Shown: positions 1-64,000 of the stretch, piece after piece
How positions within the stretch are numbered: position 1 is the first letter of the stretch
Layout of the letters: each line of letters begins with the position of its first letter
IMG/VR virus record: IMGVR_UViG_3300044638_005715
Coordinates: 39,398-103,397 of that record
DNA length: 64,000 nt
Direction: 5' to 3' (one strand)
Source of the DNA: a virus
Taxonomy: Duplodnaviria; Heunggongvirae; Uroviricota; Caudoviricetes
Notes under the pieces: generated by a model
What the model saw: only the letters and a program-made list of their open reading frames with translations
Database searches by the model: none
Told to the model about the DNA's origin: nothing
Translations under genes and position numbers: made by a program

Positions 1-138
1 TATTCTGCTGATAAGCAATATGATGATAGGGGTAAATATATGGCCCTATATACTAAACGCAATCCACCAGATTTTTGGCAGGAATTTTTGTCAGAAGGTG
101 AATTAAAAGTTTTTAGAAATTTAAATTCACTTACTTGA
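1..138 (+). CDS. 3' end of an upstream gene (partial, hypothetical)
   Basis: Open frame from position 1 to a TGA at 136-138; its stop overlaps the -35 box of the downstream promoter. Confidence 0.3.
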   Translation, partial: YSADKQYDDRGKYMALYTKRNPPDFWQEFLSEGELKVFRNLNSLT

Positions 139-163
139 CAAATTTAATTTTTAAATTAAAATA
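135..163 (+). promoter_or_regulatory. sigma70-like promoter (TTGACA-N16-TAAAAT) upstream of the 202 gene
   Basis: TTGACA at 135-140 and TAAAAT at 157-162; AT-rich palindrome AATTTAA/TTAAATT in the spacer. Confidence 0.45.
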
Positions 164-201
164 ACTTCATCTGTTCCATACACTTTAAATAAGGATTTAT
201 T

Positions 202-2192: not shown

Positions 2193-2198
2193 AATAAT

Positions 2199-2778: not shown

Positions 2779-4905
2779 ATGAAAATTACACACAGAACTA
2801 ACCCAGTTTTAGTAGAAAATGATAATGATGTAAAACAATTTGGTATGATTGTTGATGCCAAGTCATTTAGTATTATTGTCGATGGAATTTATAGTGACAC
2901 AATAAAGGCCATTGTTAGGGAATATGGATGTAATGCTATAGACAGCCACAAAAAGGCAAAAAATTATAGTCCATTTGACATTCATATGCCAACATATAGT
3001 CAGCCTGTATTCTATGTTAGAGATTATGGGGTGGGCCTGGATGAGGAAGACATTGTGAATGTTTTTACAGTTGCTTTTAAATCCACAAAGGAAGATAGTA
3101 ATCTGTTTACGGGCCAACTTGGTATTGGTGCAATGTGCGGTTTTGCTTATAATACAAAGTCATTCACTGTAACATCATGGAAAGATGGTATTGAATATAT
3201 ATATGCATGTTTTCTAAATGAAGATGGGTGCCCAGCATATACTAAAATTTCAGAAAAAAAATCTACAGAACCAACTGGCGTGAAAATTGAATTACCAGTT
3301 GCAAAAAAGGATATGAATAATTTTCGTGTAGATGGTAAGAAGATCATATCATGCTTTGAAATTCAACCAAGTCTATTTGGGGGGCTACAAAAGGGCGATG
3401 TTACAACAATTTTGCATGATAGTAAAACACATTTTAAATTTAATAATTGGGCATACTCTTCTAATAGTAATATAGAGGGGGCCCATGTATTAATGGGAAG
3501 TGTATTATATAAAATACCCTCAGATAATAAGTTAGCAAAATTTTCAAATTTACTAAATCATAATATTATTATATTGGCTAATATTGGTGATATTGATTTT
3601 ACGGTATCTAGAGAGCAAGCTAAATTAACCATTAGGACAGTTGAATTCATAAAAGATGCATTTAAACAGGTTGAAAATGATCTAGTGAAACTTTTTGATG
3701 ATATTTCTAGTGAAAAAAATGAATATGGGGCCATTCAGAAATGCCTAAATATACTCAATAATATGACAAGGGAACAAAGGAATATTATACATTCATTATG
3801 TATATTAAATGAGGTTAAATTTCATAGTAATAGAATACAATCATGCATGAATTCATTTACAGATTCTATCAATAAGAGTGTTCGTCGTGATGATATTCGT
3901 GTATTAGTATCTGCTAATACTATGAGGGGAATTCGTTGCGATAAGTCTTTTAATGGGCTAAATAGATGCATTAATATTCAACTGTATTTAGAGGATAAAA
4001 AGGGTTATAGAAATATTATTGGCAACAGTGTCAAATCTGATAATGATAAATTTAAAGTTGCCATCATATTTAATAGTAAACTATATACCAAGGAAAGCAT
4101 TGTAGCTTTATTAAATTGTGATGAATCTGATATTATATTGACTTCCTCGATAACTAAGCCATCAATTAATAGATCCACAATTGGTAAATCTGGAGATATT
4201 TCTAAACTTAATATATATGCAAAGCGTGCTTCAGATAAATTTATCAATATTGAAAATGCATTTAATGATAAGACAACGTATTATTACGTCGAAAGATGTG
4301 GTTATAGCTATAAGTACAAAGATATGGTAGATAATATTACTAATTTATCTATAGTATTTAAGTATATGAATACTGAACATGGCTGTCTCGATATTTACGC
4401 TGTTAAAACTAAAGCAATAAAAAATCTTGGTAAAAATTGGATAAACATTATTGATTTTGTTACTGAAAAAATTAATAAGGAAGAAGTTATAAAGTTATTG
4501 GCCAATAAAAATGTTTTAGATTCCTTATGGAGTAAGGCAAGTTATTCTTACGATGATAATCTTTATGAATTTATTAGTAAAAATCGCATGGAATTACCAA
4601 GCGATCATCGTATAATTCAATGGTTTGACTCAATGAAGGCCCTATATGTGGATCATAAAGCTGTTAAATCTTCGCAAGCATTGAATTTTCAAACACAAAT
4701 TATGAAAAAATATGCTGGAATTGATGAAAATCACAATTCTGTTAAAAAGATTTATAATATGATAATGAAGCAGTATACTGATTCTATTAAATCATTGGAA
4801 TATGCGGCAGATTATCCAATCATTATTGAAGCATTAGCAAACAATAGAAAATATAAAAATGACAAACTAAAATCACAAATAATTAAATTTTTAACTATCG
4901 CATAA
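2779..4905 (+). CDS. Hsp90/HtpG-like GHKL (Bergerat-fold) ATPase
   Basis: N-box REYGCNAIDS (compare ELISNASDA). G1 box RDYGVGL. G2 box GQLGIGAMCGFAYNTKSFTVTS (compare [21 protein letters not shown] of Hsp90). Length is 708 aa. Confidence 0.65.
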   Translation: MKITHRTNPVLVENDNDVKQFGMIVDAKSFSIIVDGIYSDTIKAIVREYGCNAIDSHKKAKNYSPFDIHMPTYSQPVFYVRDYGVGLDEEDIVNVFTVAFKSTKEDSNLFTGQLGIGAMCGFAYNTKSFTVTSWKDGIEYIYACFLNEDGCPAYTKISEKKSTEPTGVKIELPVAKKDMNNFRVDGKKIISCFEIQPSLFGGLQKGDVTTILHDSKTHFKFNNWAYSSNSNIEGAHVLMGSVLYKIPSDNKLAKFSNLLNHNIIILANIGDIDFTVSREQAKLTIRTVEFIKDAFKQVENDLVKLFDDISSEKNEYGAIQKCLNILNNMTREQRNIIHSLCILNEVKFHSNRIQSCMNSFTDSINKSVRRDDIRVLVSANTMRGIRCDKSFNGLNRCINIQLYLEDKKGYRNIIGNSVKSDNDKFKVAIIFNSKLYTKESIVALLNCDESDIILTSSITKPSINRSTIGKSGDISKLNIYAKRASDKFINIENAFNDKTTYYYVERCGYSYKYKDMVDNITNLSIVFKYMNTEHGCLDIYAVKTKAIKNLGKNWINIIDFVTEKINKEEVIKLLANKNVLDSLWSKASYSYDDNLYEFISKNRMELPSDHRIIQWFDSMKALYVDHKAVKSSQALNFQTQIMKKYAGIDENHNSVKKIYNMIMKQYTDSIKSLEYAADYPIIIEALANNRKYKNDKLKSQIIKFLTIA

Positions 4906-5985: not shown

Positions 5986-6947
5986 AAAAAACATATTCAT
6001 TTAATGATGTACATATAGTTCCAAGATCTAGTGAGCTAGATAGTAGGGCCCAGCCCATTCTGGAAGTATCATATGTAACAAAACATAGTAAGAGAACATT
6101 TAATGGTATGCCACTTATAGTATCCAATATGGATTATATTGGAACATATAAAATGGCATCAGCATTAGCACCTTATAAAATATGGGTGGCTTTAAATAAA
6201 TTTCAAAATATAGTTACCTATAATTACACATATAATAATGTATTTTTTACATTAGGAATGAATGATAAGGATAAAACTAAATTCGACATATTAAAAGCTC
6301 GCCAATCACCAATATGCCTAGATGTAGCTAATGGTTATATCTATAAGTTTTTGGATTATGTAAAATGGGTTAGGGATCAATGCCCCTCATCTATTATTAT
6401 GGCTGGTAATGTATGTACGCCAGAAGGTGTTGAAAATTTAATTAAAGCTGGGGCAGATATTGTTAAGGCTGGAATTGGCGGCGGATCGTTTTGTTTAACT
6501 AGAAATAAAACTGGGGTCGGCATTCCACAATTTACAGTGGCTCAAGAATGCGGCTGGGCAGCTAATGAAATGGGGGCCCTATGCTGTTCAGACGGAGGTG
6601 TCCGCGAAATCGGAGATATAGCTAAGGCATTAGGTTCTGGTTCTCACTTAGTGATGGCCGGATCACTATTTGCTGGTTATGACGAAAATGAAGTTGAATG
6701 GCAAGAAGATCCAATAAGTGGAAAAATAATGCCATTTTACGGAATGTCATCAGCCATGGCTAATAAGAAGTATTTCGATGGATTGAAAGATTATAGGACT
6801 AGTGAGGGCCGTGAGGATTATATTAAGTCTAAGGGGCCCATTTCTGCTTTAGTTCAGGATATAAGGGGCGGCTTGGCATCATGCTGTACTTATACAAACA
6901 CTAAACACATTGAGAATTTAAAGAAAAATTGCACATTTTATAATTGA
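5982..6947 (+). CDS. guaC: GMP reductase (IMPDH/GuaC family, no CBS domains)
   Basis: N-terminal FNDVHIVP and SNMDYIG motifs; active-site GIGGGSFCLTR...GVGIPQ. Length 321 aa fits GuaC rather than IMPDH. Confidence 0.7.
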   Translation: MKKTYSFNDVHIVPRSSELDSRAQPILEVSYVTKHSKRTFNGMPLIVSNMDYIGTYKMASALAPYKIWVALNKFQNIVTYNYTYNNVFFTLGMNDKDKTKFDILKARQSPICLDVANGYIYKFLDYVKWVRDQCPSSIIMAGNVCTPEGVENLIKAGADIVKAGIGGGSFCLTRNKTGVGIPQFTVAQECGWAANEMGALCCSDGGVREIGDIAKALGSGSHLVMAGSLFAGYDENEVEWQEDPISGKIMPFYGMSSAMANKKYFDGLKDYRTSEGREDYIKSKGPISALVQDIRGGLASCCTYTNTKHIENLKKNCTFYN

Positions 6948-7409: not shown

Positions 7410-7694
7410 ATGGTTATCACAGATGAAGAATTAATCGATATCTGTTTAACTATTGTTAGTATTAGTGGTGGTAAAGAGTTAAAGGGCCCTGTTCTCAAAG
7501 TTTTGTTGGATAGGGCCCAAAAACTTACTAAATCAAATGACAAGAATGTTGTATTATCTAAAATAAACCAAATGTCATTTCTAAAAGATTTAGAGATTAT
7601 GTGCCGTGATAACATAATAGATATTGATAATAGTGAAGGATATATTAATTTTAATTTTACAGAACAAGGTAAGGAACTTTTATATGGTAGGTAG
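7410..7694 (+). CDS. hypothetical small acidic protein (paralog of the next gene)
   Basis: 94-aa ORF; C-terminal D/E-rich stretch resembles that of 7684-7968. Confidence 0.4.
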   Translation: MVITDEELIDICLTIVSISGGKELKGPVLKVLLDRAQKLTKSNDKNVVLSKINQMSFLKDLEIMCRDNIIDIDNSEGYINFNFTEQGKELLYGR

Positions 7695-7968
7695 TTGGTT
7701 AGAATCTAATGATCGGGAATCTATTCTGAGTGTTGCCCTAGAAGCATTAACATATAATATAGAGAATGTTGAGGCAATGAAATTAGTTATACAATATGTT
7801 TTGTTTCAAAAGCCCAATTTAACAGAGGATGAAATTTCTGATATTGTGCATTTAATGATTATTGATAAAGCTGTTAATAATCTTGTCAATGATGGTGTAT
7901 TAGAGATTGATTATTCAGGTGATGAAAATCGTTATTATTTATCTAAAGATTTCATGGAAGATGAATAA
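7684..7968 (+). CDS. hypothetical small acidic protein (tandem paralog)
   Basis: Start moved to the internal ATG (MVGSWLES); similar architecture to 7410-7694. Confidence 0.4.
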   Translation: MVGSWLESNDRESILSVALEALTYNIENVEAMKLVIQYVLFQKPNLTEDEISDIVHLMIIDKAVNNLVNDGVLEIDYSGDENRYYLSKDFMEDE

Positions 7969-8483
7969 TGGATTTTATAAACGAATATTGGAAGTGTGTA
8001 GGTTCAGACCAGCACACCCATAAAATTCGTCAAAATAAACATTTGCAATCTCTTGACCAATTCTTAATTGATTGCGTGGAATTGCCAGCTAAATTAGAAA
8101 TGACGATTCCATGCAAATATAGAAAGGAAAAAAAATGGGATATATTTTTCCCATCCTTACAACTAGCCATTGAATATAAAACGATTACATCTAGAAGTAT
8201 TCAAAAATGTAAGTATCTACGAATTGAAGAGGGCCTTGGTAGCTGCGTAGATGCAAAAGAATACAATATTGATCTAAAGTTGGGCTACATTATTATATTT
8301 GCTTTTGATTATTGTTCTTCCAGCATTTTAAAATCACGCGATATCATCATGAATGCCTTTAAAGATATGGTTGATGATAATTATTATGATTTATTTTATG
8401 CTATACAAACTAATGGGCCTGACCATTATGAATTTCTAACTGGTGATCTAAACAATTTATTAGGAATGATTAAAAATGTCTGA
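7968..8483 (+). CDS. hypothetical protein
   Basis: 171-aa ORF, start-stop overlap with neighbours. Confidence 0.45.
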   Translation: MDFINEYWKCVGSDQHTHKIRQNKHLQSLDQFLIDCVELPAKLEMTIPCKYRKEKKWDIFFPSLQLAIEYKTITSRSIQKCKYLRIEEGLGSCVDAKEYNIDLKLGYIIIFAFDYCSSSILKSRDIIMNAFKDMVDDNYYDLFYAIQTNGPDHYEFLTGDLNNLLGMIKNV

Positions 8484-9408: not shown

Positions 9409-10172
9409 TTAATTTTATTATACAAGATGGAGTATTTTCCGATGAGCAGGAAGAATTAATACAAATTTTAAATGATAGAAAAATTCCATATGAATTAAAT
9501 ATGCCATACAGCATTATTGCCAATGGTAATTATGTTGTTCGTGGCTCAACTGAATTTATAACTGGTTTCGATAGGATGTTTGGAGAATATTGTCATATTA
9601 TTCCATTGAATTTAAAAACATACACATATAGTAAATATGTAAGATCTGTAAGGGCCCTCAATCAGGATTATATTCTTCTTCCTTATCATAAATTATATGA
9701 TGATTTTACATGTAATCATGTTGTTAATTTATTCGAGGGTGAACGAATATTTATGAGACCTAATTCTGGTCGAAAAATATTTGCAGGTACTACCTTATAT
9801 AAACGCACATGGCTAAAAGAATTAGATATTATTAGGTCAATTCCAAATACGTCAATTAAAGATAATACAATGGTGGTATTATCATCTTATAAGAAGCTAG
9901 ATGCGGAATTCAGGATATTTATTCATAATAAACGTATAGTAACATATAGCCAGTATGAAGGATATTATGATGAAATAAATTTCTCTACTTGCCTAGATGA
10001 AATAAGTTATCTTATACGAAATTTGAAAACAACATGCGTAGATGTTGTCGATGTTGGACTGTTTAATCGTAAATTTTACATAATTGAAAGAAATAGCCCG
10101 ATGTCTTCTGGGTGGTATGACATGGATTATCATAAAATTATTGATTGCTTGGAAAATTTCTTTAAAGAATAG
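9405..10172 (+). CDS. hypothetical protein, possibly ATP-grasp-like
   Basis: C-terminal IIERNSPMSSGW resembles the ATP-grasp E-x-N-x-x-PG motif; weak. Confidence 0.4.
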   Translation: MINFIIQDGVFSDEQEELIQILNDRKIPYELNMPYSIIANGNYVVRGSTEFITGFDRMFGEYCHIIPLNLKTYTYSKYVRSVRALNQDYILLPYHKLYDDFTCNHVVNLFEGERIFMRPNSGRKIFAGTTLYKRTWLKELDIIRSIPNTSIKDNTMVVLSSYKKLDAEFRIFIHNKRIVTYSQYEGYYDEINFSTCLDEISYLIRNLKTTCVDVVDVGLFNRKFYIIERNSPMSSGWYDMDYHKIIDCLENFFKE

Positions 10173-12754: not shown

Positions 12755-13298
12755 TTTGCAAGAATTGGTAGGTCAATGGTCTCAAGATAATTTCGGTAAT
12801 CAGGTGTCTAAAAGTTCTGGTGTTGAACTTGGTTCAATACCTCCACTATTAGGCATGGTTGAAGAAATATGTGATGAACTGATGACAGCTTATAATAATA
12901 GAGATGAAAAAGGGGCCCTTGATGCATTAGGTGATATAATGATCTTCATGTGTGATTTTGCATGTAGAGAAACAATTCCAGTCACATTATATAAACTAGA
13001 AGATACAATAGATGTATTATGTGAAGAGATGATGTTTGCCCACTTATTAGGTAAATTATGTCATGTGGTCTTAAAAAGGCATCAGGGTATACGCGGGTAT
13101 GACGATGACAATAAATATGTTGCAGAAAGAAATAAGATATTAGCATCATTATGTTATCAAATCAAATCCTGTCTTTTGGCAATAGAGGGAGAAATGTTTG
13201 AAAAATATCATCATCCTGAAGCACATTGGATTTTAGCTTGCGAAGTGTTTAGTAATATTGTATCTAAACGAAATTGGAAAAAACCAACTGATAATTAA
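12735..13298 (+). CDS. mazG: MazG-like nucleotide pyrophosphohydrolase
   Basis: EEICDEL (EExxE) and ALGDIMIF (D..GD) motifs of the all-alpha NTP-PPase fold. Confidence 0.55.
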   Translation: MEIRPDNLQELVGQWSQDNFGNQVSKSSGVELGSIPPLLGMVEEICDELMTAYNNRDEKGALDALGDIMIFMCDFACRETIPVTLYKLEDTIDVLCEEMMFAHLLGKLCHVVLKRHQGIRGYDDDNKYVAERNKILASLCYQIKSCLLAIEGEMFEKYHHPEAHWILACEVFSNIVSKRNWKKPTDN

Positions 13299-14407: not shown

Positions 14408-14433
14408 AACACAGTTTTACTAATTTGCCCAGT

Positions 14434-44494: not shown

Positions 44495-44791
44495 ATGAAT
44501 AATTGTATATTTTCTGGATATGTATATGAAAAACCAGAATTACAAATGGTTGACGGTGTTAGCTATTGTAACTTTTCTCTACTAGTCAACGAGGAAAGAA
44601 AGGGTAATAAAATAGAAACTATTATAGATTGTGAAATTTGGGATTCTGGAGCGGAAGCATTTGTTAATCTAGCTAACGGTGGGGATGAGGTATTCATTGA
44701 ATCATCTGCTCGCAATACAGAATTTGATGAAGAAGAATATGTTATATTCCGTGTAAATAAATTTAAGATCATTTTTGGAAATAATAAATGA
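44495..44791 (+). CDS. small OB-fold (SSB-like) protein
   Basis: FSGYVYEKPELQ...IDCEIWDSGAEAF resembles the SSB L45/beta pattern. Confidence 0.4.
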   Translation: MNNCIFSGYVYEKPELQMVDGVSYCNFSLLVNEERKGNKIETIIDCEIWDSGAEAFVNLANGGDEVFIESSARNTEFDEEEYVIFRVNKFKIIFGNNK

Positions 44792-48865: not shown

Positions 48866-48868
48866 AAG

Positions 48869-51051: not shown

Positions 51052-52102
51052 TGATGGTATGCACGCTCACTTTTTTGAGCGTCAGGGTTGGTTAAATGCA
51101 TTCAATGCTATTCCAGGTGTACAGGCATTGATGTATGAGTGTAAAAAATATAAGGCATTTGATGTTTTCGACACATTTGAGCCAGACATTTTTATAGGTC
51201 AATTATATAATTTAGATGATGCAACATTTAAATGTATATTAGAAAGGCCAAATCTTAAAGTGGCTTTGCGTGCTGGTGATTGGGGTGATTTTCAAAATAC
51301 ATTTGATCATTCTAAGCATCCAACTATGCTATTTACCACAGATGAAGATATACGAAATATAAAAAGTTTAAAAGAACAAACTGGGCAACCATCATATGTA
51401 TTTTGCCACTATGATCAAGAAGGAATTGAGAAAACACATAATTATTTTCGGGACATATTAAATATAAATATCATGGGCCTTCCAATGGGGGCCGATGTTT
51501 TCTTATATGGTGGTGGTAAACATTTACCAGAATATGAATGTGATATTAGCTTTATTGGGGGGTGGTGGCACAATAAGGCAAAAAATATAGATAAGTGCTT
51601 ACGGCCACTTTGCTATCCTGTCGGGGCTTATAATATTAAGGTTTTTGCATGGCAGCCATGGCCCCATCTTCCACAGTATTGCGGCAATTTAGATAACTCA
51701 TTAGCCAAGCATGTTTTTGCCTCTTCTAAAATATGCCCCAATATTAGTGAACCTCATTCAACTGAATTTGGCATAGATATTAATGAGAGATCATTTAAGA
51801 CATTATGTGCGGGAGGATTTTGCATATATGATAATGTGGAGGCAGCTAAAAGACTATACAGGGATGGTGAGGAAGTTGTATTCTACAATGATGAAAGTGA
51901 ATTCCGAAAAATCATAGATTACTATCTTGTGAATAAAGATGAGGCCCGATTAATTGCGGCGAATGGTCAAAAAAGAGTTTTTAATGATCATACATATTTT
52001 GATAGGGTAAATCAAATATTAGAGGGTTTCGGTATTAATAAGAAGGAAGAGATAAAATCAACTAAATGGAAAGTGATAAATGATCAAATCAATAATATTT
52101 AG
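51023..52102 (+). CDS. hypothetical protein, possible glycosyltransferase
   Basis: Track start is GTG; an alternative ATG lies at 51059. Confidence 0.4.
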   Translation: MKNLKVLIASDGMHAHFFERQGWLNAFNAIPGVQALMYECKKYKAFDVFDTFEPDIFIGQLYNLDDATFKCILERPNLKVALRAGDWGDFQNTFDHSKHPTMLFTTDEDIRNIKSLKEQTGQPSYVFCHYDQEGIEKTHNYFRDILNINIMGLPMGADVFLYGGGKHLPEYECDISFIGGWWHNKAKNIDKCLRPLCYPVGAYNIKVFAWQPWPHLPQYCGNLDNSLAKHVFASSKICPNISEPHSTEFGIDINERSFKTLCAGGFCIYDNVEAAKRLYRDGEEVVFYNDESEFRKIIDYYLVNKDEARLIAANGQKRVFNDHTYFDRVNQILEGFGINKKEEIKSTKWKVINDQINNI

Positions 52103-52922
52103 TAAAAATCGCCCCCTACAATTAGATTTAACTTTAAGTAGTATAAAGGAAAATTTTATTAGTAGGGGATCTGTATCTGTCATATGCTATATTGATGACC
52201 CATATATTGAATCTTACAAAAGGGTCGAATCTGAACATCCAGATATAAAATTTATAAATGAAAAACTTCACTCGGGGCATCTATTAGATATAGTAATTGA
52301 AGAAATTATTAATGGTGAAAAATATGTGTCATTCTTCACTGATGATATAATATTTTATCAGGAATTTAATTATTCATCTAATGACCTAAATGACATATTT
52401 TCTATACAATCCATGGCATGTTTATCGCTTAGGCTTGGTATTAATACGATATTAAGAAATGCTGAACAAAACATTCAAGACAATATTCCAGAAGTATATC
52501 GCCATGAAAATGGTTTATTGATTTGGGACAGATTATCTATACCGCCTGGAGGTTATTGGGCCTATCCATTATCAGTTGATGGTCATATATTTGAAAAGGG
52601 AAAAATATTACCAATTATTAGGGCCATTGATAAAATACAAATACATGTGTATCCATCTCAAAGATCACCCAATAAATTAGAAGAACTTATGCAAATGTTC
52701 TTTTTTCATGTTCCAAATTTAATGTCGTGTCCAGAATATAGCTGTATTGTAAATAGCCCCAATAACAGAGTGCAGAATGTTATATTAAATCAATATGGTA
52801 ATAAATTTAATCATAGCCCAAGTGATTTATTAGACTTGTATATGGGGGGTCATCGAATACAATTATCAGATTTAAATATAAACAATATTAAATGCCCACA
52901 CACAGAGATTAAATTAGTATGA
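52080..52922 (+). CDS. hypothetical protein (glycosyltransferase island 2)
   Basis: 280-aa ORF. Confidence 0.4.
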   Translation: MIKSIIFSKNRPLQLDLTLSSIKENFISRGSVSVICYIDDPYIESYKRVESEHPDIKFINEKLHSGHLLDIVIEEIINGEKYVSFFTDDIIFYQEFNYSSNDLNDIFSIQSMACLSLRLGINTILRNAEQNIQDNIPEVYRHENGLLIWDRLSIPPGGYWAYPLSVDGHIFEKGKILPIIRAIDKIQIHVYPSQRSPNKLEELMQMFFFHVPNLMSCPEYSCIVNSPNNRVQNVILNQYGNKFNHSPSDLLDLYMGGHRIQLSDLNINNIKCPHTEIKLV

Positions 52923-53812
52923 TTTTATTAACACATGTTGGAAATCCGATACCTAATTATGTATTTTACTCTATTATACATTTAAGAAAATATAATCCTA
53001 TAGCTGATATAGTATTTATAACGAATGAAAATATGCAAAATAATAATACTATGAATCTATTAAGGAAATACAATATTATTGTTATTGATGCAAATGATTA
53101 TTCCGACAATATGCTAGTAAAGGATCTAAATAGATTAACATGGATTAAAGATTTGCACCCATTGGGCCCGCCAAGTACATATGGTAGCCAACCTAATTTT
53201 TGGCACCTTACAATGGAACGTATATTCTATATTAATGCATTTTTACAAAAACAAAATATAAATAATGTACTACATATAGAAAATGACAACGTGATGTTTT
53301 ATGATTACAATATGGCATTTAATTATTGCGATCAAGACTCTATATCCTGTGTTCATAGGAAACATTATGGAGAAGATTCAACACTATTTAGTTTTGTAGG
53401 TATAAAAAACAATAAGATTTTACACACCACATGTTTAAAAATGTTGGAATTAGTTGCACTAGGTGAAAAAAAATTACAGTCTAAATATGGGCTATCACAT
53501 ATATCAGAAATGCACTTGTTAAATATAATTAGATCAGAGAACGACACTATAAAATATTTCCCGATGTTGCCGGGTGAATCCGAATATATTTTTGATCCTT
53601 ATGGTTATGGGGCCTATTTGTTGGGTGATAATATGAACCATGGTCCAGGCCACATTGATATCACAGATGATGTTGGAAAATTATTATCATCCGAACAAAT
53701 TAAACTTAGTCTGGTTAACAATATTCCATATCTTTCTCTTTCTTATAATAAGAAATCATACAAGATATTTAATCTCCATGTTCATAGAAAAAATATAGAA
53801 AAATTATTGTAA
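52919..53812 (+). CDS. hypothetical protein (glycosyltransferase island 2)
   Basis: 297-aa ORF. Confidence 0.4.
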   Translation: MILLTHVGNPIPNYVFYSIIHLRKYNPIADIVFITNENMQNNNTMNLLRKYNIIVIDANDYSDNMLVKDLNRLTWIKDLHPLGPPSTYGSQPNFWHLTMERIFYINAFLQKQNINNVLHIENDNVMFYDYNMAFNYCDQDSISCVHRKHYGEDSTLFSFVGIKNNKILHTTCLKMLELVALGEKKLQSKYGLSHISEMHLLNIIRSENDTIKYFPMLPGESEYIFDPYGYGAYLLGDNMNHGPGHIDITDDVGKLLSSEQIKLSLVNNIPYLSLSYNKKSYKIFNLHVHRKNIEKLL

Positions 53813-54322: not shown

Positions 54323-55075
54323 ATGGACACAGAAAAAGTTATTGAAGAATATGCAACCGGTAAAAGCATTAATCAATTATCAAAAGAATTTAATACATAT
54401 CCAGCAAAAATTTTTCGCTTATTGCAAAAGGCTGGATGTGAAATTAGAAATAAATCAGATGCTCAAAAAAATGCCTTAAAATCTGGAATCAGTATTCATC
54501 CTACAGAAGGTAAAAAGAGGCCACCATCTACTAAAAATAAAATTAGTGAAAAGAATGCCAAAGTATGGGAAAATAAAACTGACGAAGAACGTGAAAAATT
54601 TAAACAAAATGCTAAAGCTAATTGGAGCAAAAAGAGTGCTGATGAAAGAATTGCCATGGGAAAAAAGGCGGGTGCAGCATTACGTGAAGCATCTATTCAT
54701 GGATCGAGAGCAGAACATTTTGTAAGGGAAAAATTAGAAGAAAGTGGCTATAAAGTAGATGTTCACCGAACTGATATTGGTGGTAATTATGAGGTTGATT
54801 TATATCTGCCAAAACATCAAGTAGCTATTGAAATCGATGGCCCCCAACATTTTTTACCAGTTTTTGGAGCGGCTAGATTAGAAAAAAATATCAAATATGA
54901 CACAGTTAAAAATGGTATTTTATTGAGTAAAGGGATTAAAATTATCCGAGTGAAATATATTAAGAAACACAGTTCTCAAAAAATATTGAGGGATTTATGG
55001 AATAATATTGATAAAGAATTGCAAAGTATTATAAGTAAAAAAAATACAACTAATTTAATAGAAATAGAGGTTTAG
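54323..55075 (+). CDS. HTH plus PD-(D/E)xK (DUF559-like) endonuclease, putative homing endonuclease
   Basis: N-terminal HTH YATGKSINQLSKEFNTYPAKIFRLL; C-terminal YEVDLYLPKHQVAIEIDGPQHF. Confidence 0.5.
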   Translation: MDTEKVIEEYATGKSINQLSKEFNTYPAKIFRLLQKAGCEIRNKSDAQKNALKSGISIHPTEGKKRPPSTKNKISEKNAKVWENKTDEEREKFKQNAKANWSKKSADERIAMGKKAGAALREASIHGSRAEHFVREKLEESGYKVDVHRTDIGGNYEVDLYLPKHQVAIEIDGPQHFLPVFGAARLEKNIKYDTVKNGILLSKGIKIIRVKYIKKHSSQKILRDLWNNIDKELQSIISKKNTTNLIEIEV

Positions 55076-56370: not shown

Positions 56371-57273
56371 TTATAGATATTCAAGACTAACATGTAGGGC
56401 ATAACTTGTCTTACTACCAACTGTATTAGGGGTGGCACTCATTAAAACACGCCATGTATGTCGTGTATCTATTCCACTTCCCCCAAATGTGCCACTTGTG
56501 CCAGGGGCCCCAATATTAGGTACTGTTAATGGAGATGTGCTATTATAATATTGTCGCCATTTTGGCTGGACAGTGCTATCATAACCCCTATGTAAGAATC
56601 GCTGTCCACTTCCGGGGCTATCCATTAATGGAACTATAATTCCAGTGCCACCAACAGTTTCATCTGCCCCAACAGCAGTTAGTCGAGAATCACCATTGAC
56701 TTTAGCATCGCTAGTACGCCCATTATAGAACTTAACACCTACAGAATTTTCATAATAACCCTGGGAAGTATTGGCGGCTGGCCATGGACTACCCCACCAG
56801 AACGCATCACCAGAGCCATATGAGCTTAGTGTATTAACGGCACCCGGTGCAGACACCCATGAATTATATGCGAGGCCATTAAAATTAATTATTTCAGCAA
56901 CCTTAGTATTAACACCAGAAGCAGGAAAATTAATATTATTTCTATCATAAATTCTTAATTGAGCATTCTGAACCTTTACTGGCTCTGAATGATCAAAATT
57001 AATATCTAGTAATCTTTCAGATCCATTAATTCTAACAAGTGGAATACCGCTTGCTAAATCTTCTGGAATACCTGATGCGGTATGTGTATATTTAGTATTT
57101 TTAGCATTTCCACCATTAATAGACCCATTACTATTAGTAATATATGATCTACTTTGATATTGGCCAACAGCTACAGAAGCACCAAATGTACTACCATAAA
57201 AGCCGACTCCAGACCCATTTAAATTATTTGATTGATATGTGCCAAATGTTATTTCTGCCATTATTATCTCCAA
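56371..57273 (-). CDS. Gly/Ser/Asn-rich fibre-like virion protein
   Basis: Low-complexity G/S/N/T-rich 300-aa protein with RBS GGAGA; last gene of the minus-strand structural block. Confidence 0.5.
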   Translation of the reverse strand: MEIIMAEITFGTYQSNNLNGSGVGFYGSTFGASVAVGQYQSRSYITNSNGSINGGNAKNTKYTHTASGIPEDLASGIPLVRINGSERLLDINFDHSEPVKVQNAQLRIYDRNNINFPASGVNTKVAEIINFNGLAYNSWVSAPGAVNTLSSYGSGDAFWWGSPWPAANTSQGYYENSVGVKFYNGRTSDAKVNGDSRLTAVGADETVGGTGIIVPLMDSPGSGQRFLHRGYDSTVQPKWRQYYNSTSPLTVPNIGAPGTSGTFGGSGIDTRHTWRVLMSATPNTVGSKTSYALHVSLEYL

Positions 57274-57300
57274 GATTAAGTTACATTAATAAATACGCAA

Positions 57301-57657
57301 TTAGGATTCTGTACGATCTTTGCAGAAATTACAATACTGTAATTCTTGCTTTATTTTTTGATTATTAATAATGAATTCTGGCGTGGCCGGTTTTAATTTG
57401 CGTATCATGCAAAGTTCATATATGGTGCATTTATAGACATTGGTATTCCCTTTGCATCCACAATCCACAATAGCCACAGGATCGCCCCTATGTATACATT
57501 CGCAATTTGGAGTGAGTGTTTTAGGAATAAATTCTTCTATTTTTTCATCCTTTTCGTATATTATTCTTGCACATTTACATCGTATGGGCCAAACCTTGGG
57601 TTTATTATATAATTGACCACATTCACATTTAATAGTCATATATGGAATTCCTCTCAA
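57301..57657 (-). CDS. Cys-rich zinc-binding small protein
   Basis: About 14 Cys in CxC/CxxC pairs. Confidence 0.45.
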   Translation of the reverse strand: MRGIPYMTIKCECGQLYNKPKVWPIRCKCARIIYEKDEKIEEFIPKTLTPNCECIHRGDPVAIVDCGCKGNTNVYKCTIYELCMIRKLKPATPEFIINNQKIKQELQYCNFCKDRTES

Positions 57658-59128
57658 TATTAAATGACATATTTATATTAACACCATTACAAGATTTAGA
57701 TGTATTTAATAAATAATTAAAGGTCGGTGGTTTGAAACACTCAAAGTGATATATGTTATCTGTACCACTTGAATAGGCTGGAAATATTGCAGGAGGATCT
57801 ATAAAACCAAGTGGATTAGATAGAAATTTGACTAAAACTGAATTAGATTTGAAATAATCATTCGATAATATGGGATTAAATACACCATTACATATATCAT
57901 CATTCTCCAAATTAATACAATCTATATTAATACTAATTGCTTGTGGCATTCTTAAATTAAGTGTATCTCCAAAATATAATGTATCATATTCTGCCTTATT
58001 TACATATAATGAACAAAATAATGATAATGAGGGGGTGGGAGATACTACACTTAAATATAATGATGCTATACCATTATAATTAAGAGTTGGCTGTGATATT
58101 TGACATCCTAGAGGCTGTAATACATGTGGTTTTGTATATGTTCCAGAAATTGGAATCGTATTTATTAAATAAGAAGGGGAATAATTAAGTGAGCATAAAA
58201 ATGTCTGATTGGGCGAAACGGGTAAAATACCCGGATATGTACCAGTAAATGTACCATTAAACTGAACAGATAATTCATAAAATACATTAATAATATTGCT
58301 GACATTATTTTCAAAGCAAGACTGTCTCCTTAATGTATTAAATGACATAGAAGAAAGACTCGATTCTATCTCAAGTTGAGACGACGCATATCTACTAGAT
58401 AACCCAGATTTACATATTTTAACAGTTCCTCCCTTAGATTTAACAATATTAAATTCATCTTCAGTAAGGCCGCATAATCTATCTTTTATACTGTTATAGG
58501 GCTCAAGAGATATATCTTGAAAACATGTTTCATTACAGCATGTATATTTACATATTTTATTTTGAATTCCTAAATAGGAATCATTAATCCATCTTTCTCC
58601 GGCGTTACTAACATCATCCAATATAGTAATATCAGGATATGTGCTTTTAATAAAATTCTTGGCTATTTGTAGTTCTTGTGCATAAGATTCTATGGTTATT
58701 GATCCAGAATTATCGAGAACGAATAAAAGAAGTTTGGGGCCCTCCGCATATATTTCACTATATGGATCATTTAACATTAATTCAAAAAAAGATATTATTT
58801 GGTCTGATGTTAATCTTGGCTCATTAAAACCAGTTATTGGATATTCTACTGCATTAATTTGATCTCTATCAGTGTCATATGGTAAGTCAGATCCAGCATA
58901 TTTAATCCCCCCAATTGTTCCCCCTGGAATCATGAGGCCCATTCTAATTTTCTGACCGCTGCAATTTTTTACTTCATCAATAAAATTATTCCAAACCAAT
59001 AAATCCTCATCATATAAACTCTGTTCTGGATCTGTATATATAAATTCAGATTCGTCATATATAGATATAATGAAAGATGTAATATAACATTTTCCACATA
59101 AGCAATTACAAATAGGGGGCCTACCCAT
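57629..59128 (-). CDS. vWA (von Willebrand factor A) domain virion-associated protein
   Basis: FVLDNSGSI MIDAS motif (DxSxS); N-terminal Cys cluster. Confidence 0.5.
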   Translation of the reverse strand: MGRPPICNCLCGKCYITSFIISIYDESEFIYTDPEQSLYDEDLLVWNNFIDEVKNCSGQKIRMGLMIPGGTIGGIKYAGSDLPYDTDRDQINAVEYPITGFNEPRLTSDQIISFFELMLNDPYSEIYAEGPKLLLFVLDNSGSITIESYAQELQIAKNFIKSTYPDITILDDVSNAGERWINDSYLGIQNKICKYTCCNETCFQDISLEPYNSIKDRLCGLTEDEFNIVKSKGGTVKICKSGLSSRYASSQLEIESSLSSMSFNTLRRQSCFENNVSNIINVFYELSVQFNGTFTGTYPGILPVSPNQTFLCSLNYSPSYLINTIPISGTYTKPHVLQPLGCQISQPTLNYNGIASLYLSVVSPTPSLSLFCSLYVNKAEYDTLYFGDTLNLRMPQAISINIDCINLENDDICNGVFNPILSNDYFKSNSVLVKFLSNPLGFIDPPAIFPAYSSGTDNIYHFECFKPPTFNYLLNTSKSCNGVNINMSFNIERNSIYDY

Positions 59129-59873
59129 TTATATCACCACATCCTATATAAAATGGACGCCACTCATAATTAATTCTCATGACAGATATATAAATTTCCC
59201 GACCATTTAATACAACTGACAAACTCTTATCCCGATTATAACATTCAATAATTTCGCCCATATCTTGCCAATCTTTTCCCCTACTAACAGATATATTAAA
59301 TGTGGTTGGGGACCTTGCTGATATTGGTGCGGTGATGTCTGAAATTAATAGGCCCTCAACAATATGAAGGCCACCAGACCATACCTTGCGTTCGTCATCC
59401 CATTTTAGATCTACGGGCCCACTTTTATATAGTTTGCGATTTTTTGCAACACCTTTATCAAAACCACCATCACCATCATTAGGAACTGGCTGGTCACAAA
59501 TATCAAAACCATATCCCGACATTAACATTGGGCCACGAAAACCCATTGTTCTAAATTCCTGAATGTCCTTATATTGTTTTTTGATTGGTGATAGATTTTT
59601 AGCATCATCATCATGGCAGACTGTATTATAGTCCATATTAACACCAAGTGAAAAATATGGATTAAGAGTATCAGATGTTGGTCCTATATGTTCACCAGTG
59701 GGCTTTTCTAACCCAGGTTTACTTGTGGGATTTTTTTGTACATATATTGGTGTATATAGTTGATCATTAGAACAATGGAAAGAATTAGAATAATTACCAT
59801 TTATGGTTCTAGTGATTGAATTAATATTAGAATTAGATATATTAAAATTAGTTTCCTCCATTATTTTCCTCAT
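59121..59873 (-). CDS. hypothetical structural protein
   Basis: 250-aa ORF, overlap-coupled. Confidence 0.45.
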   Translation of the reverse strand: MRKIMEETNFNISNSNINSITRTINGNYSNSFHCSNDQLYTPIYVQKNPTSKPGLEKPTGEHIGPTSDTLNPYFSLGVNMDYNTVCHDDDAKNLSPIKKQYKDIQEFRTMGFRGPMLMSGYGFDICDQPVPNDGDGGFDKGVAKNRKLYKSGPVDLKWDDERKVWSGGLHIVEGLLISDITAPISARSPTTFNISVSRGKDWQDMGEIIECYNRDKSLSVVLNGREIYISVMRINYEWRPFYIGCGDING

Positions 59874-62385
59874 CTGGATTTAGGTTGTTTAATATAGCAC
59901 CAATACCATTCATATTAAACATGTTATTAATTCTTGACTTTTCCATATTCTTTCTTCTGTCCGCGAACGGAGATGATAATTCTCGTTTCCTGAATTTTTG
60001 TCTTTGTTCTTGTAAAAATCTAATAGAGTTTTTATTAATATTGGATATTCTATCAGCATTATATCTATTTAATCGGCCAAATTGTGGTGTCCAGCTATTA
60101 AATTTATATGATGTGGTAATACCATCTATTGAAATAGATATATCTAAACCAGTTAAATATGGGCCAGAACCACCCATTTTTTCAGCCAAGTTATATTCTG
60201 GTATAGTAGCTACATCAATAGATCCGCTTTCAGTATCCCCAATTCCAGAATTATCAATATACGCATATGCAGAAAATGCTACTTGTTGTAAAGTTGCATA
60301 ACTACCATAAGTTTCCGGACGTAGGCTATCCTCTAAAATAACTTCAGTACCACCATCTCCCTCTACTTTATTCCACCAAGCACCCCAACTATATTTATTA
60401 CTTTGTCGGGGCACACCTACTACATATGGTATATCCATAGCTGGAACCAGTGGGAAGGCAAAAACAGATGAAAAATCCATACCTCCCTGTAATAATTTAT
60501 TATATGAATAATCTGCATCCGGAATTAATTGTAATACTTGCATATAGTCAAATAAAAATCTATCTTCTGTCATATATCCGTCATCTATATATACTGGTGG
60601 TACAGTAACCAAAGCATATTGATGACCATTTTGAACGTATACTGTTCTATCAACCTGTACGTTATATGAAGCTATTGTCCTTCCTTGTATCTCATATGAA
60701 TCTGATATATTACTAAAATCCTTAATTAGTGAACTTTCATTGATTAACCATTCGCAGGCTGGTTTCAGTTTTCCTTCTGCGTCATAAAAAGCAATATCTC
60801 TATATGAATCTACTCTCACTGGGCCATATAGTGCAGGTTCTATCCATGCAGAATCAGCTATATCCCAAGCATTAATTACCCTATATTCTTCTGGTATCCA
60901 CTTTATATTATTAAATATGCCGCCCGGTTCTTCTGATAGCCTTACCAAAAACTTGCGGCCATAGAACTCATTACCGGCCGTAGAAATAATTGAACAAAGA
61001 CTATTTAAAATATCTAGGATCTCTTCAGAAATTAAGCCAGATTTAATTTTACCAGAGCAGTATTGATATGCGACTGGATCGCCATTAGCAATCGCCGTAA
61101 TAGCCTGGACATCAAATTCTCTACCAGCATAACTATTCTCATCTTGTAAATCACAATAAGTATAAACATAGGGGGCTAATACAGTTTTATTTAATATATG
61201 ATATAGGGCCCATGTATCAAACCCACTCATTGCACATCTTACTTCAAAAACTGTAGAGGGCCAATATTCACCAAAATTAGTTTGTCTTGGATACAATGCC
61301 CTCAACCAATTAGAAACCTTATAATCTAAAACAGGAATAACAGCATTAGATTTCGGACTATAATTAGTGCCATAATAAAAATTATCTGAAACACTTGGGA
61401 CAGTTTCGATTTTTTGTGCTGTTTTTATGCCCCAAACTGGTATAAAATCAATTTTATTTATTATCTCGTATTTCGAAGCAGGGCCCCCTACCACTAGCTT
61501 TTGAGTTGGAGAATTAACAAACTCCTTACCAAAGTTAGCACCAGCAAGCAATCCACGCTGTTCATATTCCTTGACAATGCCCTTCACCCTATCCCGCTCA
61601 GGTTGATAGGTTTTAGCATTCAATACGGCATAAATAACAGGATCTTCAATAATTCCGTTCTCACTTATCTCACCACTCTTCGGCCGAATAGATGTTAAAA
61701 AATCATAAGAGAAAATACTACAGCAATCCTCAATAATAGAAGCTAATGACTGAATAGGGCCCTTCAATCTATAGTCACTATTCACAATATCTTTAATAGA
61801 TGACAAATCTATCTCATATTCAGCATTACCAAATTTAGCTTTTCCACCAAATGTTTGTTCTCCCCTAGATATACTCTCTATTATAGAAAGTGCATCCATG
61901 ACAGGATAACCAAGAGAATTCACACCAGAATTACCGAATAAGCCCCCAGTGTAAAAGTTTTCTCTAACACCAAATACATTCCAGACATTACGAATATCCC
62001 CTCCAACAAACACATTTGCGGCAACACTAGGAAATTGGCCATAGAAATTTGTGCCATCATAAGCGTCTAATATTATTTGTATTCCTTGTAGTAATTTTCC
62101 TGGAGATTCTAATACTACATCCCATGTATATCCACCCATATTTTTATTGTGAAGATACCTCTGTAAAATTCCACCAAATGTTAACTTACCAAATTTAATA
62201 CCTATTGGTGTTCCTAATCGTGGAAATCTTTGCTCGAAATCTTCTTTAGCTGCTGGACCATCACCCTTAAAAACTAAAGATAATTGTGCGGTGCCACCAT
62301 CAATTCCATATCCAGCATTAAAATTCATTGATTGAATATGGGCCCCAAATAACATTGGTGCCTCAATTATTGGTAATTGACTCAT
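59848..62385 (-). CDS. large virion/tail protein (845 aa)
   Basis: Long ORF in the minus-strand operon; no catalytic motifs. Confidence 0.5.
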   Translation of the reverse strand: MSQLPIIEAPMLFGAHIQSMNFNAGYGIDGGTAQLSLVFKGDGPAAKEDFEQRFPRLGTPIGIKFGKLTFGGILQRYLHNKNMGGYTWDVVLESPGKLLQGIQIILDAYDGTNFYGQFPSVAANVFVGGDIRNVWNVFGVRENFYTGGLFGNSGVNSLGYPVMDALSIIESISRGEQTFGGKAKFGNAEYEIDLSSIKDIVNSDYRLKGPIQSLASIIEDCCSIFSYDFLTSIRPKSGEISENGIIEDPVIYAVLNAKTYQPERDRVKGIVKEYEQRGLLAGANFGKEFVNSPTQKLVVGGPASKYEIINKIDFIPVWGIKTAQKIETVPSVSDNFYYGTNYSPKSNAVIPVLDYKVSNWLRALYPRQTNFGEYWPSTVFEVRCAMSGFDTWALYHILNKTVLAPYVYTYCDLQDENSYAGREFDVQAITAIANGDPVAYQYCSGKIKSGLISEEILDILNSLCSIISTAGNEFYGRKFLVRLSEEPGGIFNNIKWIPEEYRVINAWDIADSAWIEPALYGPVRVDSYRDIAFYDAEGKLKPACEWLINESSLIKDFSNISDSYEIQGRTIASYNVQVDRTVYVQNGHQYALVTVPPVYIDDGYMTEDRFLFDYMQVLQLIPDADYSYNKLLQGGMDFSSVFAFPLVPAMDIPYVVGVPRQSNKYSWGAWWNKVEGDGGTEVILEDSLRPETYGSYATLQQVAFSAYAYIDNSGIGDTESGSIDVATIPEYNLAEKMGGSGPYLTGLDISISIDGITTSYKFNSWTPQFGRLNRYNADRISNINKNSIRFLQEQRQKFRKRELSSPFADRRKNMEKSRINNMFNMNGIGAILNNLNPDEENNGGN

Positions 62386-63908
62386 TTAAATACCCAGGTA
62401 ACATTTACAGTATAATTTCCCAATATTTCATCAAAAGACTCATTAAATGCTTCTACATAATATCCATCCTCTACATTTCCTGGCTTATACCTCAATAAAA
62501 TAGGTTTAAAATATTCGGTTGGTTTTACATTTTTAAAACATTTTGACATAATAGCGTCTATTTGTATAATTCGTCTTCTCTCTGGGCGTGTTCTCATATC
62601 CTGAATTTCAGGCCCATCCACATTAAATATTAGTGGGATGATAGCAATTTTATTAACAATAAAGTCTTCATTATCTGATTCATAGTTTATGTTTATAGAT
62701 AACGATGTGGTAATTGGTTTACCATCTATGATTAATTCTGATGGATATGGCCGATCATTATAAGAATAAGAAAATGTAATAATACCTGAATTTTTATTCC
62801 TTCCAATACTTCTGCTAATTAAAATATTTTGTAGGCTAGACGAGCAATCCCCATACTGTTCATACGCTGAATTAGCTATTGTAAAAGCCTGATTATCAAT
62901 AACATTAAATAGAGCCTCTGCATTAGATAACTTTTGAATTGTGTTGCTAATTGATGATTGTGAATTAAGGCCCTCTATTGTGCCACTCAAGTTAACCGTC
63001 GTAATACCCGACTCATCAAGATCGGAACTGACTTCCATATCCACAACCGCTGGTGACCTTGAGGATAACCAAGTGTCCGTAATTGAATATGATCCACCAG
63101 CAATATCACAATTAGGAACTCTTAAATGATTATAATATAAATAATTATTATCTAAATCAGTAATTCCATTAATTGACCCAGACATTTTCCTAATGTTGAA
63201 ATCAACATCTGAACTACCAGATATACTACCAGTAATTAAGTCATTTGGTGTGACCAGTCTACTTCTAACAAATAATTCTGCTTGTCTCCATGCATCACCA
63301 TCAGTAGCTATTCCGCCCTCATTATATTTTTTTATACCAACAGCAGAAATAGTATGTGATATGGTATATGTTTTATATATGTCAGATTCCCATGAGCCGC
63401 TAGATGTAAATTGATCTGTATTTTCAGTAACTTCTATAGTTTCATCCACAGATTGTATTGCATATGGATATACAGTATTATTATAGGCTTCAAATTCAAA
63501 AGTATATTCTGTATATGCTAGGCCCCTACTTTCATCACTTTGTTCTGGAATATTTACACTTAATAGTTTAGCTGAATCATATTGAAGCGTATTAGGAAGG
63601 CCCCCGTATGGTGTTATTTCTAATTTTCCATGATTATCATTTGATTCTATTTTAGATTGTAATTCAAGTATGATAGCATGAAAATTATTCTGTTTTGCCC
63701 CCTTATTGACTAAGACACCATTATCATCATATTCGGCGTCACCATCTATAATAATACGGCCCGTTATCTGAATATTATATTTAATACCTATTTGAGACCC
63801 ATCATTTACTGGAACAGAAGTGGAATTAATAGAATATTTTGGAAATGGTCGGCCTGATTGGCCCCCAATTGCATATTCAGTTCCATTACTAAAGAAAATT
63901 ACTGCCAT
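62382..63908 (-). CDS. virion/tail protein (508 aa)
   Basis: Long ORF, overlap-coupled to its neighbours. Confidence 0.5.
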   Translation of the reverse strand: MAVIFFSNGTEYAIGGQSGRPFPKYSINSTSVPVNDGSQIGIKYNIQITGRIIIDGDAEYDDNGVLVNKGAKQNNFHAIILELQSKIESNDNHGKLEITPYGGLPNTLQYDSAKLLSVNIPEQSDESRGLAYTEYTFEFEAYNNTVYPYAIQSVDETIEVTENTDQFTSSGSWESDIYKTYTISHTISAVGIKKYNEGGIATDGDAWRQAELFVRSRLVTPNDLITGSISGSSDVDFNIRKMSGSINGITDLDNNYLYYNHLRVPNCDIAGGSYSITDTWLSSRSPAVVDMEVSSDLDESGITTVNLSGTIEGLNSQSSISNTIQKLSNAEALFNVIDNQAFTIANSAYEQYGDCSSSLQNILISRSIGRNKNSGIITFSYSYNDRPYPSELIIDGKPITTSLSININYESDNEDFIVNKIAIIPLIFNVDGPEIQDMRTRPERRRIIQIDAIMSKCFKNVKPTEYFKPILLRYKPGNVEDGYYVEAFNESFDEILGNYTVNVTWVFK

Positions 63909-64000
63909 TATTCAATATATCCCCGTATAAACGTATTCATATTTCTGTCCTGAACAGAAGTTCCATCAATTACAATATTTATACCCAAATCTTGTAAATT
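63908..64000 (-). CDS. 3' end of a further minus-strand structural gene (partial)
   Basis: Open frame to the window edge; its stop TAA overlaps the ATG of 62382-63908 (ATAATG). Confidence 0.35.
   Translation of the reverse strand, partial: NLQDLGINIVIDGTSVQDRNMNTFIRGYIE

Follow-up and report, generated by a model that had tools for sequence, protein, structure and literature searches.

A clade-restricted GGSCC signature beneath the excess of GGGCCC in an uncultured lake phage

Introduction

The closest described cases of short words that are grossly over-represented in a genome are the highly iterated palindromes (HIPs) of cyanobacteria, namely HIP1 (GCGATCGC) and the alternate HIPs GGCGCC, rCCGGy and GCsGC (PMC4390886; PMC5861425). 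A mismatch-repair ratchet has been modelled for the alternate HIPs (Elhai 2015, PMC4390886), and HIP1 sites keep their positions between related genomes more often than control words do (Xu et al. 2018, PMC5861425). Here we analyse a 64,000-nt stretch (hereafter, the window) of the genome of an AT-rich uncultured lake phage, IMGVR_UViG_3300044638_005715, which is rich in the palindrome GGGCCC. We find that GGGCCC is not a discrete site but the most conspicuous part of an oligonucleotide signature that is specific to the lineage and centred on the pentamer GGSCC (GGGCC/GGCCC; S is G or C, W is A or T).

Phage genomes are noted for the loss of restriction-type palindromes and not for their gain. 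In a large survey, only ~1% of virus-site pairs were over-represented (PMC4687349). In Escherichia coli, very-short-patch (VSP) repair by Dcm/Vsr has been proposed to leave a footprint on the abundance of oligonucleotides (Bhagwat & McClelland 1992; Merkl et al. 1992; both as cited in PMC4687349).

The phage signature resembles the HIPs in being a short, GC-rich, (quasi-)palindromic word that is lineage-specific and dispersed in coding DNA in all frames at ~500-2500 copies/Mb (here 516/Mb for GGGCCC, 970/Mb for SGGCCS and 2500/Mb for GGSCC), and a mismatch-repair ratchet is among the origins proposed for the HIPs. It differs from them in belonging to a phage clade rather than to a cellular genome, in that the pentamers account fully for the hexamer, with an enrichment graded by the length of the GC block, and in that no cognate methyltransferase was found in the phage window. 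The HIPs show a chromosomal periodicity of 10-90 kb; the phage window is 64 kb long, and its short-range spacing is Poisson. The preliminary description of this DNA had suggested an analogy to HIP1, which proved a useful lead, but neither is the palindrome the unit nor do the phage sites keep their positions, and HIP1 itself is absent.

Results

The excess of GGGCCC acts at the level of DNA

The window has a GC content of 31.3%. An exact search returned 33 copies of GGGCCC, the number claimed in the preliminary description, each 0-10 nt from the position listed there. The copies are located at 2413-2418, 3479-3484, 6046-6051, 6574-6579, 6834-6839, 7484-7489, 7513-7518, 9652-9657, 12913-12918, 14132-14137, 14946-14951, 17179-17184, 17414-17419, 18939-18944, 24638-24643, 32805-32810, 33640-33645, 34440-34445, 36889-36894, 38613-38618, 38823-38828, 39781-39786, 42603-42608, 43857-43862, 47544-47549, 53164-53169, 56505-56510, 58737-58742, 59415-59420, 61206-61211, 61481-61486, 61757-61762 and 62340-62345. 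Base composition alone (order 0) predicts 0.94 copies, which makes the observed number a 35-fold excess. Dinucleotide shuffles and an order-1 model predict 4.1-4.3 copies (~7.6-fold excess; 0 of 100 shuffles reached 33), and Markov models of order 2 and order 3 predict 6.8 and 18.8, respectively.

Codon-aware null models were based on the 85 called genes, which cover ~98% of the window, with synonymous codons shuffled inside each gene, preserving both the proteins and the codon usage. These shuffles contained 5.5 +/- 1.8 copies of GGGCCC (z=15, 6-fold excess), and permutation of whole codons left 4.4. The excess thus extends beyond codon usage (33 versus 5.5), as had been proposed, whereas its reported 30-fold size applies to base composition only: against the codon-aware nulls, including the constrained ones described below, it amounts to 3-6-fold.

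The sites occur in genes on both strands and, as described earlier, in all three reading phases (8, 17 and 6 copies in phases 0, 1 and 2, with 2 more in intergenic DNA), each phase being enriched 6-10-fold over the shuffles. At these sites, GCC-C is frequently completed by CTN instead of TTR leucine codons. The codons involved had been called rare in this genome, which is accurate for GGG, CCC and GCC (14%, 12% and 19% of the Gly, Pro and Ala codons, respectively) but not for AGG (26% of Arg). Because the excess is present in all three phases and persists over synonymous shuffles, it reflects an effect on the DNA and not on the protein, in agreement with the preliminary description; a cause at the level of protein or codon usage is ruled out by the synonymous and codon-permutation shuffles together with the enrichment in every phase.

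The unit of enrichment is the pentamer GGSCC

The most over-represented 5-mer in the window is GGSCC, with 162 copies on the plus strand (90 GGGCC and 72 GGCCC) versus 42 in synonymous shuffles (z ~22, 3.9-fold), and the leading 4-mers against the same null are GGGC/GCCC and GGCC. An order-4 Markov model predicts 34.7 copies of GGGCCC versus the 33 observed, so that the count of the hexamer follows entirely from its two overlapping pentamers. Thus, the pentamer GGSCC, and not the palindrome GGGCCC, is the unit of enrichment. The contrary assumption of the preliminary description, that the hexameric palindrome is the selected unit, is ruled out both by this model and by the flanks of GGCC, with which the enrichment is graded. 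WGGCCW shows no excess (27 copies versus 34 expected), and AGGCCT within this class is absent (0 versus ~5). GGCC with one G/C flank is enriched 1.7-3.2-fold, and SGGCCS ~5.4-fold (62 versus 11.5); within the latter class, the values are 6.1-fold for GGGCCC (33 versus 5.4), 4.0-fold for GGGCCG (20 versus 5.0) and 8-fold for CGGCCG (9 versus 1.1).

The same gradation is seen in exact blocks flanked by A/T, which rise from ~1x for blocks of 3-4 nt to 2.7x for GGGCC, 5.7x for GGGGCC and 15x for GGGGCCC; 10 of the 33 GGGCCC copies are themselves flanked by A/T. Runs of at least 6 nt consisting only of G/C number 159 versus ~70 in shuffles. No enrichment was found for GC-only words without a G-to-C junction (CCGGG, CGGGG, GGGGG), and the six GC-only hexamer palindromes other than GGGCCC and CGGCCG have 0 copies. 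Extension of homopolymer runs is ruled out as a source, with A/T-flanked GGGGG at 0.4x.

Four-fold degenerate sites, which are ~80% A/T overall and hence under strong AT pressure, carry the same preference: the third base of GGN|CC is G or C in 74% of cases versus ~20% in A/T contexts, with G preferred before SS and C preferred after SS. Furthermore, GGWCC, the product of a transition at the central base, is depleted (21 versus 37-38, 0.55x, z -4.2 to -4.6).

The sites are dispersed and independent along the window

The flanks of the 33 GGGCCC copies show no conservation at +/-12 nt; the sites are therefore independent, as had been supposed, and not members of a repeat family, and a dispersed element of the REP or MITE kind is ruled out. 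Spacing of GGGCCC is Poisson-like (mean 1.87 kb, coefficient of variation (CV) 0.97), as is that of GGCC and of the GC blocks (CV 0.97-1.10), which rules out regular spacing or 'clamps'. Hairpin pairing of GGGCC with GGCCC in RNA or DNA is likewise ruled out, the number of pairs at hairpin distances being equal to expectation. The strand counts (90 GGGCC versus 72 GGCCC) follow the G>C skew, and both orientations are enriched ~4.5-fold on the coding strand; with no polarity beyond this skew, a Chi-like recombination hotspot was rejected.

The enrichment of GGSCC is uniform over the early, replication, sugar-island and structural regions. The glycosyltransferase island had been singled out as holding only two GGGCCC; although this count is right, the deficit is not significant (binomial p=0.14), and when its own codon usage is taken as the reference, the enrichment in the island resembles that in the rest of the window.

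Palindromes of other kinds are avoided

The window is purged of many palindromes. GCGC is absent (0 versus 33-38 expected), as are 13 hexamer palindromes with expectations of 3.7-14.8 (CTTAAG, GCATGC, GGATCC, AGTACT, AGGCCT, TACGTA, CCTAGG, TGCGCA, CTGCAG, CAGCTG, GGTACC, GTGCAC and GAGCTC). This loss could be due to many host restriction systems or to a phage-encoded nuclease for which these are the avoided sites. In these absences and in the 0.55x depletion of GGWCC the window resembles other phages that avoid restriction sites, but the GGSCC/GGGCCC signal has the opposite sign. Dinucleotides are biased as well (AC/GT 0.75, AT 1.18, CpG 0.60, GG/CC 1.40), and purines are in strong excess on the coding strand (A>T, G>C).

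The contribution of avoidance was estimated with constrained synonymous-codon shuffles (Markov chain Monte Carlo, MCMC) that were capped at the observed counts of CpG and of palindromic 4-, 5- and 6-mers outside the GGCC family and, in a second set, also at those of all significantly depleted 5-6-mers. These shuffles yielded 8-10 GGGCCC and 56-66 GGSCC versus 33 and 162 observed, which leaves a 3-4-fold excess of GGGCCC. Avoidance contributes in part, given that GGC|GC and GGA|GC are excluded and GGG|GC remains; it accounts for at most ~1/5 of the excess. Nor is the effect a mere redistribution from GGWCC, because the total of GGNCC is itself raised (183 versus ~81 expected).

Relatives share the signature but not the positions of the sites

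Relatives were collected as RIIA homologues at 35-42% identity (labelled here with the prefix L), and ~22 kb was fetched around each. In L001/L002, L003-L005 and L006, which have the gene order Thg1-x-RIIA-RIIB-IMPDH, GGSCC is the top 5-mer (z 5.3-7.4 in synonymous shuffles), with WGGCCW at ~1x and 0-1 copies of GCGC. The more distant L019 is enriched as well (70 GGSCC versus 26), so that GGSCC ranks first among the 5-mers of five lineages, the window phage and four related uncultured ones. Other, more distant relatives showed no excess of GGSCC, neither L007 and L009, which still avoid GCGC, nor L008, L010, L014 and L020-L023; GCGC is nearly absent from L001-L007 and L009, including relatives without the GGSCC excess. 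CCWGG is absent from L019, L020 and L021 (0 versus 15-32 expected), and CCSGG is raised by a similar amount, a clear case of escape from an EcoRII/Dcm-type restriction site by a central W-to-S change; avoidance thus explains the CCSGG excess of L020 and L021. The top GC-rich words of L022/L023 are CGGCC (17 versus 4.5) and GCSGC (16 versus 5.8), not GGSCC, and may be lineage-specific variants of the bias.

As for AT-rich phages in general, T4, P-SSM2 and HTVC008M have GGCC at 0.07-0.9x of composition and long G/C runs that are rarer than random. These reference genomes either lack the excess or avoid GGCC, which rules out a generic property of AT-rich phages and bears out the earlier impression that the excess is unusual for phages; our literature search found no description of such a GC-word signature in phages. 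The GGSCC signature is thus unusual, sequence-specific in its core and clade-restricted.

The turnover of sites was followed in an alignment of L001 and L006 (9.3 kb, ~77% nucleotide identity). GGCC was kept at 27% of sites versus 38% for all 4-mers, the commonest counterpart of GGCC being GGGC/GCCC, and GGSCC was kept at 34% versus 31% for all 5-mers, that is, with no excess positional conservation; HIP1 differs in this respect. Enriched GC-only words persisted more often than non-enriched GC-only words (~31% versus ~11%), and C<->T differences were rarer in S-flanked contexts (0.11 versus 0.18) and most frequent after A (0.20 versus 0.13-0.14). Thus, what is preserved, through unequal loss and gain, is the density of the sites and not their positions. 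By the reasoning that Xu et al. applied to HIP1 (PMC5861425), such turnover points to continual replenishment and not to site-specific selection. Together with the Poisson spacing, it also disfavours a discrete binding or recognition site at fixed positions, one of the roles suggested in the preliminary description.

Candidate agents in the window

A conserved 250-aa protein encoded at 54323-55075 (plus strand) is predicted to combine an N-terminal helix-turn-helix (HTH) with a C-terminal nuclease domain of the Vsr/DUF559 fold. The closest PDB folds to its AlphaFold2 model (42 homologues; pLDDT 89.5) are 1CW0 and 1VSR, both E. coli Vsr (probability 1.0, E ~1e-3, TM 0.6), and an identical protein is labelled 'very-short-patch-repair endonuclease' by JGI. 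The protein may be regarded as a weak candidate for the agent behind the signature. Its gene, which lies between the sugar island and the structural module, is part of the syntenic core; the protein is 70-75% identical to those on contigs matched to the L001 and L003 phages, whose RIIA is 37-42% identical, and 54% identical to the homologue in the enriched L019. Residues D159, E170, D172 and H176 are invariant. The middle part of the protein faintly resembles an HMG box (E ~0.3). The family comprises 131 clusters from uncultured freshwater and marine phages, some with >100 members in Tara/ENA, and no close homologue was found in any cultured phage.

A second, weaker candidate is a 136-aa open reading frame (ORF) at 30181-30591 (plus strand), directly downstream of a UvsX-like recombinase, with a faint resemblance to DUF559 of the Vsr superfamily (Pfam E 0.016, below the cut-off) and no sequence match in PDB. 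The FkbM methyltransferase encoded at 39097-39750 is unlikely to be a DNA methyltransferase: it scores 37.6 bits against TIGR01444 (cut-off 37.7), belongs to a sugar/small-molecule type and, as read from its sequence, has FkbM-type motifs but no DPPY or PC-type motif. Its gene lies in the replication module, between those of a DnaQ-like exonuclease and DnaE.

Genomic setting

The window encodes RIIA/RIIB, Thg1, ThyX, an intein-bearing ribonucleotide reductase (RNR), PhoH and UvsX, and its replication module includes DnaB, a Toprim primase, a deoxynucleoside monophosphate kinase and a split DnaE. A GMP-reductase-like protein of the IMPDH family matches 'dehydrogenase' in PHROGs, and its orthologues in relatives carry Pfam IMPDH. 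No tRNA genes were found in the window. No close relatives were found among INPHARED phage records (nucleotide and protein searches) or IMG/VR viral contigs, and the metagenome and genome scans returned one distant locus each. The identical 250-aa protein and identical contigs of 4-12 kb are present in SRR27430802, SRR27430019 and the JGI metagenome 3300002835, which we take to be Lake Mendota; a search of the literature for the sample accessions returned nothing. Other contigs of the window phage are 99.93-100% identical. The longest contig with the identical 250-aa protein is 137 kb.

Inteins are frequent in the genes for replication and nucleotide metabolism. The N-terminal part of DnaE (39765-41228) ends in an intein-like segment and is separated from the C-terminal part (42131-44485) by an ORF for a TnsA-like endonuclease (41311-42159), an arrangement that, from the sequence, looks like a split or endonuclease-invaded intein; the split site presumably differs from that of the cyanobacterial DnaE split intein. 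An intein-like insert is also present in the RNR small subunit (643 aa, 21743-23674), and a 661-aa PD-(D/E)XK nuclease (35494-37479) carries a LAGLIDADG domain. Of the two glycosyltransferase clusters (14425-18135 and 44788-53812), the larger is replaced by different sugar-pathway genes in relatives and includes an ORF that reads as nucleotidyltransferase-like and has no match in Pfam. Five large ORFs on the minus strand at 56371-63908 (300, 499, 250, 845 and 508 aa), without Pfam or PHROG matches, are presumably structural; a tblastn search with the 845-aa protein gave no match in 50,697 phage records. Among the remaining ORFs, that at 19371-19895 resembles sigma-70 region 2, and that at 7968-8483 gives a sub-threshold hint of a DpnII/MboI-type restriction endonuclease fold.

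Discussion

A several-fold, codon-independent excess in a genome otherwise purged of palindromes, shared by four related lineages, indicates that a sequence-specific process acts on the phage DNA. The best explanation, which we put forward tentatively, would be a context-dependent repair or mutation bias that ratchets the sequence toward GGSCC and longer GnCm blocks, in a manner similar to VSP footprints and to the model for the alternate HIPs. A strand-symmetric bias, either of mutation or of a short-patch mismatch repair that corrects T:G to C:G, would keep or create G/C in the contexts GG_CC, GGG_C and G_CCC against the AT pressure. GGWCC and other one-off neighbours would thereby be converted to GGSCC, blocks would lengthen as GnCm, and GGGCCC would arise wherever GGGCC on one strand overlaps GGGCC on the other. 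Sites would be lost and refilled continually, with density rather than position being kept, and the agent might be the HTH and Vsr-fold nuclease encoded at 54323-55075 or a host enzyme. The preferences at four-fold sites, the depletion of GGWCC, the turnover of sites, the lower rate of C<->T differences in S-flanked contexts and the regional uniformity were all counted in favour of such a bias, and from them we infer that repair or mutation, rather than selection, may be the cause.

The likeness to VSP repair lies in a 5-bp palindrome with central degeneracy, of which the C-containing word is enriched and a T-containing derivative (GGWCC) depleted, and in the presence of a gene with a predicted Vsr fold. 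The effect of VSP repair on oligonucleotide abundance in E. coli is far more modest than that in the phage, which is much larger (3.9-fold codon-aware). In addition, the derivative that is depleted in the phage differs at the centre of the word and not at the methylated C, no 5-methylcytosine methyltransferase was found in the phage sequences searched, and the putative nuclease is DUF559-like with an extra HTH.

Several observations weigh against a repair or mutation bias of this kind. Apart from GGWCC, none of the transition neighbours is depleted (GGGTC, GGGCT and GAGCC are at 0.9-1.2x), and the G<->C transversion variants GGGGC, CGGCC and GGGCG are themselves enriched 2-3-fold, so that a strictly sequence-specific enzyme is not an obvious source. 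The effect of context on substitutions between L001 and L006 is modest (~1.6x), and Poisson spacing and turnover are equally predicted by selection acting on density. Neither a DNA (cytosine) methyltransferase nor a canonical Vsr turned up in a search that covered 64 kb (the window) of the ~137-kb phage genome and ~22 kb around RIIA in L001-L006. The matches of the nuclease at 54323-55075 to DUF559 (E 6.5e-4, 20.0 bits versus a cut-off of 20.6) and to the TIGR00632 vsr family (E 1.4e-3, 18.9 bits versus 97.85) are both sub-threshold, and its catalytic residues, set against the E. coli Vsr sequence, are presumably of the DUF559 type rather than the Vsr type. Moreover, its presence does not track the GGSCC trait across relatives: homologues at 43-47% identity are encoded by L020-L023, which lack the excess.

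A rather doubtful alternative is selection, at the level of density, for a recognition word GGSCC/SGGCCS that is bound, methylated, nicked or used in priming, with the number of copies per kb kept and their positions free; the agent could be an orphan GGCC-family methyltransferase marking 'self', a nucleoid or packaging protein, or a primase starting on GC-only templates. The flank rule is one-sided, as for a 5-bp asymmetric recognition around a symmetric core, and the enrichments of GGCCS (~3-3.9x) and GGCCW (~1.4x) compare with ~6x for S on both sides, which is roughly the product. The same top word recurs in five lineages at 37-42% RIIA identity, of the palindromic words made up of G and C alone, none but GGSCC and CGGCCG is tolerated (the six other hexamers are absent), and the density is ~1 site per 570 nt per strand. 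Moreover, orphan GGm4CC methylation by M.Ssp6803II/DmtB is widespread and functionally important in cyanobacteria and, like the phage signature, involves a genome-frequent word with a GGCC core and no restriction use (PMC6105098). In contrast to that system, however, A/T-flanked GGCC is not enriched in the phage, no methyltransferase is seen in the 64-kb window and a cyanobacterial host is not supported. Selection for a word also sits poorly with spacing no more even than random (CV 1.0-1.1), with strand polarity that does not exceed the G>C skew (90 versus 72), with positions that are not conserved between L001 and L006, and with the block-length grading and the tolerated G<->C variants, which are atypical for a specific protein site.

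It is improbable that the phage mirrors, through shared repair and replication, a host genome rich in GGSCC/GGGCCC as a HIP1-like or Chi-like word. The trait is restricted to a clade whose sister lineages differ, as expected if their hosts differ, Shine-Dalgarno usage in the window is weak, and alternate HIPs are known in some cyanobacteria (PMC4390886). However, HIP1 has 0 copies in the window with CGATCG at expectation, and Chi-like strand polarity is missing. A plasmid of Nostoc PCC 7120 shows the opposite pattern (GGCC 14 versus 85, GCGC normal, 42 copies of HIP1), which speaks against a host signature of the Nostoc or HIP1 type. A search of a genome collection gave a single match, to a distant RIIA (29% identity); the contig that encodes it, which was binned with a metagenome-assembled genome of Flavobacteriales, shows no GGSCC enrichment. 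Least probable is that restriction-site avoidance and CpG depletion (0.60) funnel the G/C-rich codon neighbours into the few permitted words made of G and C runs. Such funnelling would fit the lack of GCGC and of the 13 hexamer palindromes, the restriction on GGN|GC, which cannot take C (GCGC) and avoids A (GGAGC), leaving GGG|GC, and the exchange of CCWGG for CCSGG in L020/L021. As a sufficient cause, though, it is largely refuted by the constrained shuffles, which reach just 8-10 of the 33 GGGCCC and 56-66 GGSCC; it also conflicts with the raised GGNCC total (183 versus ~81) and with L007 and L009, which avoid GCGC too and have no GGSCC excess.

A more specific reading, in which the phage clade has a sequence-specific activity of its own for short-patch repair or for modification (perhaps the HTH/Vsr-fold protein) that writes the HIP-like word from GGSCC to GGGCCC, appears unlikely; if it were true, an iterated-palindrome system would for the first time be known from a virus, one small and tractable enough to serve as a model for the origin of such words. 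Should a repair or methylation ratchet operate at all, the phage would offer a compact system of ~137 kb for the formation of HIPs, at a time when the HIP1 question has stood open for ~30 years, whereas a selected word would point to a new phage DNA-handling protein. The GGSCC signature is, in addition, a strong k-mer marker of this phage clade in lake metagenomes.

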